Made by a program: the position numbers. This document shows, in pieces, positions 1-6,000 of a stretch of DNA of 16,049 bases (position 1 is its first letter; each line of letters starts with the position of its first letter). The DNA lies in IMG/VR virus record IMGVR_UViG_2778261567_000016, positions 1-16,049 of that record. One strand, written 5' to 3'. The stretch comes from a virus. Taxonomy: Duplodnaviria > Heunggongvirae > Uroviricota > Caudoviricetes.

Positions 1-3000
1 CCCGTAACGCCTCTGCCACGCGCGTAACGTGACAGGGATTAAGGGTAAACTAACTGATTTTACAAGTTTTTATTTTACCCCACTTTCTTATGGGGCATAC
101 ATGGGACACTTTCAGATAGTCTTTTGTTAAGGAGTTCTATCTGTTCGTGATTGTTGTCTTTCATCCATGCTCCGTAAACATTGAATACCATTTGTGCGTT
201 TGTGTGGCCCATCTGGCTTGCGATAAAACTAGGATTAGCTCCAGCGGCAAGTGACCAGCATGCATAAGTATGCCTGGATTGGTACGATTTTCTGTGTCTC
301 AGACCTGCGCGTTTTAAGATACTTGTCCATGACTCCCTGATGGAGTCAACTTTGTAGTGAGGTCCAGACAACTGCTGCTGTTTTATTACCTGAGGGCTAA
401 AAACAAAAGTACATTTATGCACAGCAGTTCTCCCATATTCCCTCTGCTTTACCTCTACAGAATGTTGCTTTCCAAGCATGGTCATTTCCGCCTGGCTTTT
501 AAGAGCATCAATAGCTGGTTGAACCAGATGAATTGTCCTTCCGGTGCCAGCATCGGTTTTTGGTGGAGTGAATTCGCCAAGTTTTGTATAATTTCTACGG
601 ATGGTTATAGTCCTTGCTTTAAGGTCTATATCTTCCCATGCCAGCGATACCAACTCCCCGTGACGAATACCCGTGTATACAGCGAGAATCCACAGGTTTT
701 TTGTTTGTTGATGACGGCAAGCCTCAATAAAACGAATAAATTCGTCACGGGTGAGAGGATCTGGTTTTACCTTGGACTTTTTTAAGGGAGCCAGACCGTT
801 AAATGGGTTTCCTGAGGTATAACCATTATCTGTTGCAAATTGAAACATTCCAGCTATGGTTGTCATATAGTAGTTTACCGTGACCACTGAGCGCCCTTTT
901 ATGGAAGAAGTCTTTCCATTAGAAAGCTTTTGGTAACCGGTCAACAAATCTCTCCTTACGAAAAGTAAATCCTCTTTTGTTATGGATGAAACCAGTTTTT
1001 TTTCACCTAACATTGGTAACATGTTTTTAATTACTGACTGGTAACGGTTAAGTGCATTCGCACAAATCTCAATTTTCTTAAGGTCCAACCATTTTTCCGA
1101 AAGTGCCTTAACGGTTATCTCTCTTTTTCCCAGACCAAAGTGTTTCAGGTTAGGGGAATTAGGGAACTGCGCGGCGTAGTCGAAACTCCCCATTCTGATT
1201 GCAAAACAAACTGAAGTGCGAAGCTCACCTGCGATCTTCCGGTTTTTGGCGGTGTCAGGAACACCGAGGTTTTCTCTGACACGTTTGCCATTATAGTGAA
1301 ACCATATACGGAGTGATCCTCCATGGTTTTCAACGCCTGTCGGGTATGATGCGTTACTCATAAAACCTCCCAGACGTCCAGGAGCATTAACAGGTTAACC
1401 GGAACTTGCATTTTTGGCACCTGGTTGTTTCTGGTTTTCGATCCATCGCATAATTTCTTCGATGTTGTACAGGCATTCACTGTAATGCCCCGGATCGCCT
1501 TCTACAGCGTAATGGCGGTATTCTTTTCCCTGCATCCATGACTTTCTTCTGGCCCGCTCGATGGTGCCAGGCTTTAGCCCTGTTGATGCAATGAGGACTC
1601 TCTCCGTACACCATTTGCTGGGGGTTATCTGATAGATGATTGTCTGCATGCCAACCTCATAAAACTTTCATCCACGGCAGTGGCACCACACTTCAAACAT
1701 TCGCTTCACATCTTCTGTACAACACGGTGTTGTTTATGCAGCGAACAATTTTTACCGGGTAACCGGCACTGTCGGTATACAGTTGTCCCTGATTAATCAG
1801 AGCGAACATTTTTTCTCCTGCTCTCTGAATAGTGAGAACTTCAGAGCCGTATGTTTGTAGCGGGTTCAATGCTGATAATTTCTGCTGAGATAAGCATCCC
1901 GGCAAGCCAGAGTTCCCCGGACAGGTCTTCATCCTGGCATATCAGTTCGCCAATATTAATGGTGGCCATGATATCCGTTTTCCCTGTGCGCTCATCCAGG
2001 ACTTCTTCATAAGGCAGCGTTGCGTACAGGCTTTCAATAGCGCAATTGATAACATCCAGTCCGGTCAGATTGCCGCCGACAGTAACTTCGAATGTTTCGC
2101 GGTATTCCCATAGTCCGAAAGTTAATCGAACGGTTTGTTTTGCCATGCGTCCGCACGACGTCAGATTCGGGTCATAGTTCATTATTTGCGGTTGAGTATT
2201 CTGGTTGTTCATCTGATTTTCCATTAACCCGGCGGTTTGCCGGGCGTGTAAGTTATTTAATCTGGATAAATAGTGTATTGGCACCACTGGTCATGTATTG
2301 CGGCAGTGTACCGTTCCACTTGTTGATGGCTTCCAGCTCCATGACGCTAGGGTTCTGGCGCAGAGCTTCACCGCGTAAACGAATAGCATCGGCCTCGGCC
2401 TGGGCTTTTGTGAGAATCGCATCTGCCTGTCCGGCAGCTTCCGCGCGCAACATGTTAGCTTCCGCTTCGCGCTGTTTTACTTCCTGTTCGCGTTGCAGGG
2501 TTTTCTGGTTCGCCGTGACTTTGGCATTAATGCTGTCGATAACGGTTGGCGGGTACTCCGGCTTACCCACATATGAGAGACTCATTACCTGAATACCTAT
2601 GGGCGTCATTTCTGCCTGAATGTCTTTAAGAGCTGCATCCAGTAGTTCAGACTTCCCGCCGTCGATAAATTTGTCAGTGGTCATTTTGCTGGCCAGTCGA
2701 TTGAGTGCGTCGGCGATCTTCTGGCGCAGGTCAGTGTCGGTAATGTCATCCACGCCTTTGCGGTAGGTCTGAAACACCGTGGTAACTTTGGATGGATCAA
2801 CTTTGTAGGCAACACCGATGTGATAGCCAATGGTTGTGCCGTCACTCATCTGGAAGCTGAACGGCTCATCGTAGGTCTTCATTTGTTTGAAGGTTGGGAA
2901 GATGTAAACTTCAGTATTCCAGCCAGTCCAGTAGCGACCAACACCGACCACCTCACCGACGCCTTTATCGTCGCCCAGTTTATTTACTTTGATGCCAACA

Positions 3001-6000
3001 TTACCGGGTTCAACGCGATCGCAGCCGACAAGGCCAATGGTCGGCAGAACAATGGCTAAAGCAAAAATAATTTTTTTCATTTTTTATCCTTAGTGAAAGA
3101 AAGACCCTTGTAAATGGCATAAATGCAGGGCGGGGTCAGAAACGCCAGTGCAAAGCCAGAAATAACTGCTATCGTATCCTTCATGGATATAAGGAACGGA
3201 ACGAGTAATCCGTAAATGCATGCGATAATTGCCAGTAAAATTACTATTGTGAAATACAGTTTCATTGGTATGTGGTATCCCGATATTTTTAACTGACAGA
3301 CAGCGCAATAAAGAGAATAATGATTTCTGTTATTGTCAGTACTGTGGCAAGGATTAAAAGCAGTTTTACTCTGCTTAAGTCACGGTTGCTTTTCATATAA
3401 ACGGTTAGTAAAAAACGGAAGAATTATATTCCTCTTAATATTTAATGTGTCACTGGCCTTCTGGCATACCATGAGTATTCAGGTCGTTAATCATTTCATC
3501 CAGAAGGAGTTCAAGCCCTTCTCGCCCCATGTCTGAAACAATGAAACCTTTATCTGGGTATGTAATGAGCATTTTCTGATAAAGAAATAGTGCTCTACCC
3601 ATTCCTTCTGCCTCGCCGTATTTTTGAATTAAATTCCATTCAATATACTGCTGTAAGGCAAACCGAATGGGGCCGGGATATATCGTCATAACCCCATGCT
3701 TCCCGTTATATATTACGGCGCGATCTGTTGTTCCGTGTTCGTTTGGGATATCAATAGTGCCATTCTTGTTTTCTTCTTCGTTGATGAATGTCGTCACGTA
3801 CAACCAGCGCCACTGGGCTACCTTCATCTCAACAGGGAGTTTACCCAGTAATCCTGCATTGTCGGCTTGTGCGAGGCATTGAAGGATTTGCAAACCTTTC
3901 ACATTAGGATGATCGAATGCACCTGCATCCAGACGGCGGATTGCGTCGTGATAATCAATAGTCATACTGCCAGTTCGTATACCTGTGGCTGTTGCTTCAG
4001 CCTGGAATTCAGTGTATTGCATGATATTTACTCCTCATCTTCATCAGCTGGTGCAATAACGTCATATCCTGCCTTTTCTGCAATAAACAGGAATGTTGAA
4101 AGACTTCCTACAAGTTCATCGTCATGAACATGACGAATTAATATTACTTTCCCGTTTTTGATGGTCAGCAATACTCTGGTTTGCTCGTGTTCTGCTGTTT
4201 TCTGATGCATTATTATCTCCCGTATGCTTTACGCAGAAACAAGCAGGCAATATGCATGTAATTTTTCCCGTGCTGTGCAATAAGGCAGGCTGTTTTGTGT
4301 GATGCCTTATGTTTTATAAAGGTCATATAAAACCTCCTGTTGATTAAGGGTGTGATAATCCCCGGCGATTAAGCCGTAATATATTATCCGGAGATGACTT
4401 GTTCTATTTAACTGGTTAGTTCTTTTTCAGCAGCTGCTTCAGCATAGCAACGTGCAAATTCAAGAACTTCATCACCTGTTCTTTTTATTGCATCGTTGTC
4501 TGACATTTGTAATACAACAACTGCGCATAATAAATTATGGATATTGTTTGCAAAGGAATCCGCTGCCAGGCATAAGCCTTCATACTTATCATGGATATTG
4601 CCAGTCATTGTTGCTACTCCTTTGCTTCTGATTTTCCCGTTAACAACCACATCAAGTCACAATTAAGCGCACTGGCCAGTGGTACTATCTGAGCAGCTGG
4701 AACTTCATGGATGCCGCATTCCCAGTCGTTTATGGGGTCACTATAGGTATGAATCATGCGGGCAAGATCAGATTCGGTTAATCCCAGTTTTGTACGGGCG
4801 CTTTTGATGCGTGCGCCAATACTTTCCACATGGACTTCAGGCACATTTACGCGAATAACTGACTCGCTGTTTTTTTCACTCAGCAGAGAAAGCGGATCGC
4901 ATCCCAGGACGTTTGCCAGGGGGATAAGCATGCTGATGGTTGGTTCGTACTCTCCGCTCTCCCACTGGATGATAATTTCTTCATCGAGATCGAGCAGCCT
5001 GGCGAGTTCGGCAGTTGTTAAGCCGCAGGCTTCACGTTTGGTGCGTATGCAGGCTATCTTGTTGCCTGAGCGAATAGAATGTTGTTGTTTTGTCGATGCG
5101 ATCGCTAAAGCATATTCATGAGTAAATTCCAGCACATCAAACCCAACCTCTTTTAATCGCGTATCATCCAGGAGGTTGAAGGTGCGAACAGCACTGAGCA
5201 GGTTTGCGATGGTTAATGCAAAAGAATCGAGGTCTAAATCATCACATAAGACCTTGTTGTAAGTATTGAGGCTACATGTTTTTGGTGTTGTTTGTAAGGC
5301 TTCCATATCATCACCATGCAATTCTAAGTTGAAGTTAATCAATATATAATTGATGGTGAGATATTATGTATCAGGAAAACGTGTGTCAATCAAAAATTGA
5401 TAAACTTGATTTTTTTGTAATGTGTGACCAATAATTTAATTTAAAATCAATAACTAACCAAATCTGTTGATATTGAATGGTACCGATGAGATGACTTTTG
5501 ACTGGATATATAGCAGCGCCATTCCCTCTTTTTCGATGCTCCATGGCTGATAGTTGGGATTGTCTGATAAGACCATGATCTTGCTTCCAATTTTTTGAAG
5601 TCGTTTGATGTAACATTCGCCATCAAAGCAAAATGCATAAATGCCATCACCGTCAAAATAAGTTACTGTTTTATCTAAAAACAGCAAGTCCCCTGGGGAG
5701 ATTGTTGGGGCCATGCTGTCCCCTCTGGCGTTACCAATTTCTATGTTCTTGAATGCTCTGTTACCGACCAGGCGGCGGGCATATTCAGGATCAAGTTCTA
5801 TTGAGCGTACAACATCAATTAGATCTCCCCGAACATGAGTTCCGTCGCCGCAGCTGGATTCAACATCCAGTACATTGAACACAACGCTGTCTTCTCTTGT
5901 ATGGTGTTTTTCAGCTGAAGAAAGTGTTGATGAGGTGTCTTCACCCAAAAACCAGGATTGTGGATAACCACTAATTACTGATAGTTGTGCAAGTTTATCG

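Follow-up and report, generated by a model that had tools for sequence, protein, structure and literature searches.

The stretch of viral DNA considered here (IMG/VR virus record IMGVR_UViG_2778261567_000016, positions 1 to 16,049; the whole 16,049-nucleotide stretch is called the window) is the left arm of a lambdoid prophage whose host lineages are Shiga-toxin-producing E. coli. Its leftward genes include one for an exported SPFH lipoprotein of 275 amino acids, preceded by an overlapping gene for a two-helix membrane protein of 62 amino acids. The two genes make up a unit that recurs in very different phages and in bacterial chromosomes, and that in some cases is fused into a single gene. 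The reading preferred here, drawn from sequence features and held with slightly less than even confidence, is that the pair encodes a split cage of the prohibitin/HflKC type, which would face the periplasm from the inner membrane, be made early in lytic growth, and act on a conserved component of the host envelope. The PHROG clusters and the RefSeq name "SPFH domain-containing protein" are already known; the obligate hairpin partner with its motif, the natural fusions and the reading as a split cage appear to be undescribed.

The SPFH lipoprotein and its structural relatives

The features of the pair are listed below; alignment A1 comprises 67 SPFH relatives at 30-63% identity.

2253-3080, minus strand: SPFH gene, 275 amino acids
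3021-3080, minus strand: lipoprotein signal peptide, residues 1-20; lipobox L-V-G-C at residues 17-20 (3021-3032), with Asp at +2
2457-3017, minus strand: SPFH (Band_7) domain, residues 22-208 by the Pfam envelope; alpha/beta in the AlphaFold2 (AF2) model
2355-2549, minus strand: continuous 65-residue helix, residues 178-242 (DSSP; predicted local distance difference test, pLDDT, about 93-98), the wall helix of SPFH cages
2301-2321, minus strand: family-specific C-terminal motif K-W-x-G-x-L-P, residues 254-260 (alignment A1)
3077-3265, minus strand: two-helix partner gene, 62 amino acids
3185-3199, minus strand: turn motif P-F-L-I-S between the helices, residues 23-27, conserved in the partner alignment
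3077-3091, minus strand: coupling junction, with an ATGA stop/start overlap at 3077-3080 and an AAGGA Shine-Dalgarno sequence at 3087-3091, 6 nt before the SPFH ATG

The N-terminus of the SPFH protein reads MKKIIFALAIVLPTIGLVGC, followed by D-R after Cys20, and its signal peptide is made up of a basic n-region, a hydrophobic core and a lipobox (MKK-IIFALAIVLPTIG-LVGC). This is the pattern expected of a lipoprotein that is a substrate of Lgt and LspA (basic n-region, hydrophobic core, [LVI][ASTVI][GAS]C). The lipobox Cys20 is invariant in alignment A1, and C-D-R is found at this position in 95 of 95 enterobacterial SPFH relatives that match the motif pattern. The Asp at +2 fits the E. coli Lol-avoidance rule for retention in the inner membrane.

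The mature protein is recognized by the Pfam Band_7 model (PF01145) over residues 22-208, with 108.5 bits against a cut-off of 23.6 (E=5e-31), and it belongs to phrog_200 ("lipoprotein") with E=5e-113. The stretch covered by the protein corresponds to positions 81-359 of the 379 in the phrog_200 profile; the first 80 or so positions lie upstream and may represent fused or over-extended members. An AF2 model built with the family alignment as input has a mean pLDDT of 91.4 and consists of an alpha/beta SPFH domain (residues 20-175), the 65-residue helix, which aligns with the coiled-coil region of HflK, HflC and the prohibitins, a short helix, and a less confident tail. The C-terminal motif contains two residues that are invariant in alignment A1, W255 and G257, and P260 is at least 90% conserved. 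As modelled, the protein has the full architecture of the cage-forming SPFH proteins, namely the domain, the wall helix and a conserved tail.

Searches against the PDB point to the same group of proteins. With the single sequence HflK alone was reached (E=2e-4), while the family profile matched prohibitin-1 and -2 (1e-10), HflC (5e-7), HflK (1e-6) and QmcA (1e-6). A Foldseek search with the model returned, in ranked order, HflK (E=1e-14), prohibitin-2, HflC, prohibitin-1, erlin-1/2, stomatin, flotillin, QmcA and the major vault protein, with probability 1.00 for HflK, the prohibitins, HflC, erlin, stomatin, flotillin and QmcA. The leading matches (HflK, prohibitin-2, HflC and the erlins) are without exception SPFH proteins located on the non-cytoplasmic side of their membrane. 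The first-pass annotation had described this product as an SPFH lipoprotein, and the lipobox, the Band_7 match and the agreement between profile (Pfam) and structure (AF2 and the Foldseek match to HflK) bear out both the lipid anchor and the fold. Orthology to HflK or HflC was considered and rejected, since the NCBIfam models TIGR01933 and TIGR01932 gave 23.1 and 29.2 bits against cut-offs of 159.4 and 134.4. Furthermore, there is one SPFH gene with a cleavable-type signal peptide rather than a pair of K and C paralogues with transmembrane anchors.

These relatives raise the possibility that the protein is an FtsH-directed mimic of HflKC or prohibitin, whose cage would capture, or compete for, the periplasmic face of FtsH and so shift the turnover of its substrates. 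In temperate phages those substrates could be regulators of the CII, CIII or Xis type; in lytic phages they could be LpxC or membrane proteins of the phage. The pair would then be the membrane-side equivalent of lambda CIII, at the same place in the operon. By both profile and fold the nearest solved relatives are indeed HflK, HflC and the prohibitins, which cage FtsH-family proteases with the same predicted topology, and Hinderhofer et al. in 2009 predicted an FtsH link and a periplasmic location for the "p-prohibitins" of group SPFH4 (PMC2636767). The universality of FtsH would also fit the broad taxonomic spread described below, and a conserved host target would fit the high conservation of the mature protein. 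However, the likeness to HflK and HflC is generic (15-18% identity, and 23-29 bits against NCBIfam cut-offs of 134-159), and in Foldseek nearly equal scores go to erlin, stomatin and flotillin, whose clients are different. Strictly lytic phages have no lysogeny decision to tune, and the mimic offers no specific role for the partner. As a complete account it seems unlikely, and FtsH is kept as one candidate client of the cage.

The two-helix partner, its linkage to the SPFH gene and natural fusions

The partner has two hydrophobic segments and a basic C-terminus. It is annotated by RefSeq, and its match to phrog_1130 ("membrane protein"; E=2e-23) argues that it represents a real gene family. 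In an alignment of 66 partner sequences, P23 and S27 are each present in 66/66, G37 in 63/66, L25 in 59/66, V34 in 57/66 and I26 in 56/66. The signature that emerges is a first helix, the sequence P-x-L-I-S-[AS]-x-[SD]-[TD], a second helix with a Gly, and a basic tail. Members can be recognized by a turn P-x-[LM]-[IV]-S in a product encoded upstream of, or fused to, an SPFH lipoprotein gene, a pattern that the window protein fits. The partner defines an uncurated family with an invariant P-x-L-I-S turn; no related chain was matched in the PDB.

The first-pass annotation had compared the arrangement to the cellular pairing of SPFH proteins with small NfeD-like membrane proteins. The analogy of layout stands, in that a small membrane-protein gene lies beside an SPFH gene, but the partner itself is not NfeD-like. 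The window protein had no NfeD match, none of 21 diverse partners had a Pfam match at E<=1, the NfeD family (PF01957) and OB-fold families included, and 62 amino acids leave no room for a soluble OB domain; the identification with NfeD was rejected on these grounds. In addition, NfeD partners go with the cytoplasm-facing groups SPFH1, 2 and 5 (PMC2636767), whereas the SPFH protein here is exported. A canonical SPFH-NfeD operon with an unusually short NfeD is refuted as a matter of family membership and retains next to no probability as an explanation.

By sequence criteria, that is, the ATGA overlap and a ribosome-binding site within the upstream gene, the SPFH gene is translationally coupled to its partner. 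The first-pass annotation had named three open reading frames (ORFs) in this region, and all were found on the minus strand, including the 62-residue two-helix protein whose stop overlaps the SPFH start.

The linkage of the two genes was assessed by scanning one genome per species with a 12-sequence SPFH alignment, which gave 80 genome loci from Enterobacterales, Xenorhabdus, Morganella, Sutterella, Dyella and other Rhodanobacteraceae, Leptospira, Saprospirales, Bacteroidales, Dependentiae and more. A hidden Markov model (HMM) of the partner, trained on enterobacterial sequences alone and then run on these loci, matched a same-strand ORF directly upstream of the SPFH gene in 68 of the 80, with a single weak off-target match (E=0.88) among 5896 ORFs. 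One iteration of the HMM raised the number to 70. Inspection of the remaining loci by eye added a diverged partner next to the SPFH gene in L099 and fused partners in L157 and L164, leaving one degraded locus (L158), five without a partner and one without upstream sequence. The partner is present, then, in about 73 of 79 assessable loci, in related and unrelated elements alike, and the co-occurrence that the first-pass annotation had put up for checking proves far broader than expected. The distance from partner stop to SPFH start falls between -5 and +30 nt in 60 of the 65 scorable loci, and two of the outliers carry an IS1-like insertion. In L085 and L086 (about 2234-3000; from Shigella flexneri and an E. 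coli genome) the pair is split by an IS1-like element that contains an InsA-like ORF; the insertion uncouples the two genes and changes the C-terminus of the partner.

The association also holds in the reverse direction. All eight sampled sites with a 66%-identical partner have a 275-residue Band_7 gene next to it with a 4-nt overlap, and these sites are lambdoid prophages with other repressors and other integration sites. When the neighbours of the 80 loci were clustered, no third gene was found to be conserved across lineages, the only further synteny being lineage-specific, as with nrdAB and BlaI/BlaR1 in Dyella.

Further evidence comes from natural fusions. Of the 150 top-ranking cluster representatives, 26 reach a length of 320 amino acids or more, and in at least 14 of these 26 the N-terminal extension matches the partner HMM (E from 4e-11 to 3e-3); in one representative, P0168, the partner-like segment lies at the C-terminus. 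Four of the 80 genome loci (L131, L137, L140 and L163) contain in-frame fusions in which the lipobox is retained. The fusion in L137 reads ...YYKQIKILIKQ-MKKLKLMLILLVSVISFTSC-SKVPAGNVGV, with the internal Met, the hydrophobic segment and the lipobox Cys all kept. The order in the fused proteins is hairpin, signal-like helix with the lipobox Cys, and SPFH domain. Natural fusion is a classical type of evidence that two products work together, and it argues for this conclusion here. The fusions also bear on topology, since they would place both ends of the hairpin in the cytoplasm and have the third helix carry the SPFH domain to the periplasmic side.

Distribution in phages and bacteria, and the prophage setting

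An exhaustive search of 1.84 billion cluster representatives found 2930 clusters of the SPFH family at E<=1e-3 and 227 at E<=1e-30, most members being 270-300 amino acids long with a signal peptide and lipobox. By tblastn the protein is present in 378 of 50,697 phage records, nearly full length in 372. The lytic carriers include N4 and N4-like phages, Vequintavirinae (GAP31), Ounavirinae (phiEa104), Bruynoghevirus (DL54), and phiCbK-like, crAss-like, Lak and jumbo phages; the others include temperate phages such as phiE125, in which gp44 resembles a diverged partner, and phage-plasmids of the SSU5 and P1 types. A DNA match was found in 669 of 5426 complete E. coli genomes (about 12%), with 198 places on plasmids. 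By these counts the pair is no rarity. A scan of viral contigs yielded solely copies 97-99% identical to the window.

Pairs on non-mobile chromosomal DNA are found in Dyella, Xenorhabdus, Leptospira and Saprospirales, in the last three amid ordinary cellular genes. In Dyella and other Rhodanobacteraceae (L101, L104 and about 16 other Dyella loci, roughly 1-2450) the genes from which the pair diverges are of the BlaI repressor type (Penicillinase_R) and the BlaR1 type (M56 peptidase), and nrdAB is close by. This context hints at regulation by an envelope or cell-wall signal.

In four types of phage the pair occupies an early operon controlled by a repressor or by the phage programme: the lambdoid early-left operon, the P2-type early operon, the P1 ban operon and the early/middle region of N4. 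In the P2-like phage P88 a 67-residue membrane protein overlaps the SPFH start by 4 nt within the P2-type early operon. In the P1-like RCS47 an unannotated two-helix ORF of 78 amino acids overlaps the SPFH start by 20 nt, and the same ORF is annotated in phage Ro157c2YLVW. In these two phages and in several "P1" isolates the pair lies between trnI and upl in the C1-controlled ban operon, a slot filled by tciABC in P1 itself. The N4 pair consists of gp19 (partner HMM, E=5e-10) and gp20, which overlap and follow just after the RNA polymerase II genes.

Several of the small partner genes have gone unannotated. In the reference records of phiP27 (L002, 3308-3668) and RCS47 (L004, 3776-4012) the partner gene is unannotated, the RCS47 copy being intact, and in PhiSH19 an unannotated two-helix ORF of 72 amino acids runs into the start of that phage's more distant SPFH lipoprotein gene. 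Annotation pipelines are missing such ORFs, as these three phages illustrate. A further gene adjoins the pair in two phages. N4 gp18 (L167, 2407-2721; "similar to P22 gp17") is 56% identical to a PhiSH19 protein labelled "superinfection exclusion protein", and both gp18 and its PhiSH19 counterpart lie just upstream of the partner-SPFH pair. This counterpart and the 72-residue ORF of PhiSH19 are at 2638-2958 and 2432-2650 of L181. A gp18-type gene recurs in PhiSH19 alone and is absent from the window.

The two genes are conserved to very different degrees. The mature SPFH proteins of P88 (L003) and RCS47 (L004) are 94-95% identical to that of the window (85-91% at the DNA level), while the signal peptides are 40-65% and the partners 23-31% identical; mature N4 gp20 is 66% identical to the window protein. 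DNA similarity between the window and P88 or the P1-like phages extends no further than the lipobox codons (about 3032) on one side and a point some 11 codons before the stop (2286) on the other, and the first of these recombination boundaries coincides exactly with the signal-peptide cleavage site. Because similarity is confined to 2286-3032, the mature core moves from phage to phage as a cassette and works alongside very different partners. By the same token, the pairing of 95%-identical SPFH proteins with 23-31%-identical partners implies that any contact between the two must rest on the short conserved turn.

These comparisons bear on the idea that the pair serves superinfection exclusion, in which a periplasm-facing complex would block entry of a secondary genome or protect the infected cell against lysis from without. 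The inner membrane and periplasm are the site where known phage entry blocks act. The early-operon position in four phage types would fit such a role, as would the occupation of the same slot in P1 by tciABC, another accessory envelope cassette (annotated for tellurite/colicin resistance or cell-division inhibition), and the P22 gp17-like gene just upstream in N4 and PhiSH19, with its exclusion label in the latter. However, exclusion proteins are usually specific and fast-evolving, unlike a mature SPFH protein that is 94-95% identical across lambdoid, P2-like and P1-like phages, and homologous pairs are fixed in non-mobile chromosomes (by nrdAB in Dyella, and in Xenorhabdus, Leptospira and Saprospirales). 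Moreover, the SPFH protein, the partner and the 35-residue ORF described below have no PADLOC model match and no match to an exclusion family in Pfam or PHROG, and the literature search described below found no published phenotype. The first-pass annotation had raised superinfection exclusion and abortive infection, for which nothing specific emerged; on the comparative evidence they are less likely than a host-directed envelope role, and exclusion is judged improbable.

The window itself is closely related to prophages of the same kind of host. It is 99.6% identical over a tested 2.2 kb to a prophage inserted beside mlrA in STEC17-190. Several Stx2-converting phages match it at 96% identity, and phiP27 at 91%. 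The other features of the region are as follows.

75-1361, minus strand: integrase
1395-1649, minus strand: excisionase
1841-2212, minus strand: DUF5406 gene, RefSeq start ATG 2212
2227-2245, minus strand: G+C-rich 7-bp hairpin directly 3' of the SPFH stop, without a U-tract (RNA fold -14.1 kcal/mol, z=-2.6)
3289-3396, minus strand: lineage-specific, putatively coding single-helix ORF, 35 amino acids
3450-4022, minus strand: phrog_1515 gene, then small genes
4614-5342, minus strand: double helix-turn-helix protein
5389-5361, minus strand: promoter-like TTGACA-17-TAATAT (consensus scan, 10/12), candidate early-left promoter just downstream of the CI-like repressor gene
5454-6173, minus strand: CI-like S24 repressor
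starts at 6276: cro-like gene, divergent from the minus-strand genes

The label of early-left operon for the minus-strand region from int to CI is reasonable, because of the gene order and because TTGACA-17-TAATAT lies where an early-left promoter would be, and the first-pass placement of the pair in this operon fits that gene order. Promoter-like sites in the region show no excess over shuffled sequences, and the site at 5389-5361 is to be taken as a lead only. The start of the DUF5406 gene is most likely the ATG at 2212 used by RefSeq rather than the GTG at 2287 of the mechanical ORF list, in which case that gene does not overlap the SPFH gene and the hairpin at 2227-2245 is left intergenic. 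A moron, as an autonomous prophage transcription unit, would have a promoter and a terminator of its own. A terminator scan called no terminator after the SPFH gene, this hairpin included. No minus-strand promoter-like site was found between 3266 and 3450 by the consensus scan, which a weak promoter could escape, and no structured RNA in or around the pair (2100-3600) matched Rfam at E<=1.

The first-pass annotation had suggested that the 35-residue hydrophobic peptide might be a further member of the module, and this suggestion has not survived: the ORF is outside the conserved unit, being absent from P88, RCS47 and N4. Its reading frame is intact in 22 DNA variants that differ at up to 11 of the 108 nt, mostly by nonsynonymous changes; it lacks an evident Shine-Dalgarno sequence, it has no Pfam or PHROG match, and it is not called by RefSeq. 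As a third subunit it was rejected on account of its absence from every other pair-bearing phage type and of substitutions that are not clearly purifying. A promoter-like CTGACA-17-AATAAT lies on the plus strand within this ORF (3293-3321), a layout that recalls type I toxin-antitoxin systems; there was no Rfam match.

The prophage setting also invites the suggestion that the product is a surface or vesicle lipoprotein of lysogenic conversion, serving host benefit or virulence in the manner of PM0222. That protein, a prophage-encoded, HflK/C-like product of Pasteurella multocida, is reported to occur in outer-membrane vesicles and to signal via Toll-like receptors (TLR) 1/2 (PMC9872710), and the window belongs to a prophage of Shiga-toxin-producing lineages that has phiP27 and Stx2 phages among its relatives. 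Yet PM0222, likened to the present protein by the description "HflK/C-like", is no more than possibly related to this subfamily, and the pair is equally common in strictly lytic phages (N4-like, Vequintavirinae, Ounavirinae, Bruynoghevirus, phiCbK-like). The pair is embedded in early operons under repressor control, and no promoter of its own was detected; Asp +2 predicts inner-membrane retention, and in the fused variants the SPFH domain is tied to helices of the inner membrane. Nothing found suggests that the pair is a lysogenic-conversion gene, and such a role is very improbable.

Two further observations concern other parts of the window. An isrK Hfq-binding RNA (8250-8326, plus strand; 60 bits) and a C4 antisense RNA (8351-8438, plus strand; 82 bits), both above the Rfam gathering scores, lie at the start of an Ash/Rha antirepressor ORF (8196-9059), which amounts to a P1/P7 immI-type control module in a lambdoid prophage. 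Just downstream of the Q antiterminator gene (13722-14120) is a reverse-oriented, AT-rich ORF pair (14228-15503, minus strand), one of 305 amino acids with no Pfam match and one of 155 amino acids with an HSDR_N match (E=3e-9), overlapping in different frames at 15036-15145. This pair may be one frameshift-split gene or a defence-like moron.

Proposed mechanism and comparison with known systems

The preferred model of the pair is a cage assembled from two products. The SPFH protein would be exported and lipidated at Cys20, and Asp +2 would hold it on the periplasmic side of the inner membrane, in the outer leaflet, with the topology of HflK and HflC. There it would oligomerize into a ring or cage, as does every solved relative. 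The hairpin, with its basic tail, would begin and end in the cytoplasm and present its conserved turn at the periplasmic face of the membrane, providing the bilayer-spanning fence or anchor that in HflK/C and in the fused variants is part of the same chain. Coupled translation would supply matching amounts of hairpin and SPFH protein. The unit is probably made early in lytic growth, because of its position in early, repressor-controlled operons in phages. Once assembled, the cage would fence off or stabilize a patch of inner membrane or a resident client, and so keep the membrane in a state that the phage requires. The near-identity of the mature protein in phages with unrelated virions and entry routes, together with the chromosomal copies, argues that the target is most likely a conserved host component and not an incoming phage.

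Several considerations weigh against this model. All of its steps beyond the sequence features are inference, and "envelope conditioning" is a broad notion that names no client. The Arg at +3 may weaken Lol avoidance, and an outer-membrane site is possible in view of the vesicle location of the possibly related PM0222 of Pasteurella (PMC9872710). Five of the 79 assessable loci have no recognizable partner, and in the lytic phages GAP31, phiEa104 and DL54 one or two unrelated small genes separate the partner from the SPFH gene. As an alternative to contact through the turn, the partner may act on its own, with no binding to the SPFH protein. Finally, the absence of a promoter of the pair's own in the consensus scan does not in itself prove silence in lysogens.

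A broader version of the split-cage model, possible but distinctly more doubtful, is that of a widespread, hitherto unrecognized two-component cage, deployed early by phages of Gram-negative bacteria (N4, P1-like and SSU5-like phage-plasmids, Stx and phiP27-like prophages, and many lytic families), that captures a specific conserved inner-membrane machine, for instance FtsH or a channel used for phage DNA entry or by membrane-targeting abortive-infection effectors, and thereby controls proteolysis, secondary infection or membrane collapse. The chromosomal copies would then be the ancestral housekeeping form.

The literature offers little on such proteins in phages. A full-text search (SPFH with phage defence, superinfection exclusion, N4 gp19/gp20 and Schitoviridae) found no functional study of a phage SPFH protein, and PM0222 was the only characterized prophage-encoded HflK/C-like protein that it turned up (PMC9872710). 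A paper of June 2026 on an N4-like phage states that the reason for the SPFH gene "remains unclear" (PMC13239085), and the 2009 survey of prokaryotic SPFH proteins lists SPFH3, SPFH4 and SPFH6-12 without an operon partner and leaves phages unmentioned (PMC2636767).

SPFH cages (HflK/C, prohibitin, stomatin, flotillin, erlin and QmcA-YbbJ) have lately become structurally tractable, and the open question is what each contains. The present subfamily is of a different build, with a lipid-anchored wall and a separate, sometimes fused hairpin, and it occurs in easy model phages such as N4 and the P1-like phages. Once the small upstream ORF is seen to be a constant companion, two genes annotated as "hypothetical" can be tested as one unit. 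Should the client prove to be FtsH or an entry route, the pair would represent a new form of phage control over host membrane proteolysis or secondary infection; if there is no phage phenotype, it would still be a useful natural split/fused pair for studies of SPFH cage anchoring.

T4 Imm and Sp, P22 SieA, HK97 gp15, P1 Sim and the Ltp-type lipoproteins are early, small inner-membrane, periplasmic or lipoprotein factors of entry exclusion, typically phage-specific. They resemble the present pair in lying in the same kinds of operon, but none is an SPFH protein and none has sequence or profile similarity to the pair. P1 tciA-tciB-tciC shares the identical slot between trnI and upl of the ban operon, but its sequence is unrelated (TerB-like) and its function is inferred by homology alone. 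Both window proteins are members of PHROG families, phrog_200 and phrog_1130, which are, however, sequence clusters without an assigned mechanism.

Closer likenesses are found among cellular SPFH systems. The SPFH4 "p-prohibitins" are likewise predicted to face the periplasm and lack NfeD, but the survey that defined them, to which the comparison is by description, reported no operon partner, lipoprotein anchor or phage members (PMC2636767). In B. subtilis, the small membrane proteins YdjG and YdjH (SamG/H) recruit the SPFH protein YdjI (SamI) together with PspA in an envelope-stress module (PMC8581546; bioRxiv 10.64898/2026.02.06.704340); SamI, again likened by description, differs in being cytosolic, PspA-linked and from a Gram-positive host. 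The E. coli HflK/HflC-FtsH cage (PDB 7vhp, 7vhq, 7wi3, 9cz2) has the SPFH domain, long wall helix and C-terminal cap region seen here, and lies on the periplasmic face of the inner membrane where the present protein is predicted to be, but the latter has one SPFH gene, a lipid anchor in place of an N-terminal helix, a separate two-helix partner and only 15-18% identity. The prohibitins PHB1 and PHB2 are the best profile matches (E about 1e-10), over nearly the full length. The SPFH-NfeD operons (QmcA-YbbJ, PDB 8z5g; Pyrococcus PH1511-PH1510) likewise combine an SPFH gene with one for a small membrane protein; here, in contrast, there is no OB-fold or NfeD domain, the SPFH protein is exported, and the partner gene comes first with a stop/start overlap. 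In QmcA-YbbJ the helices of the partner lie inside the cage, which provides a precedent for a membrane partner as a core subunit.

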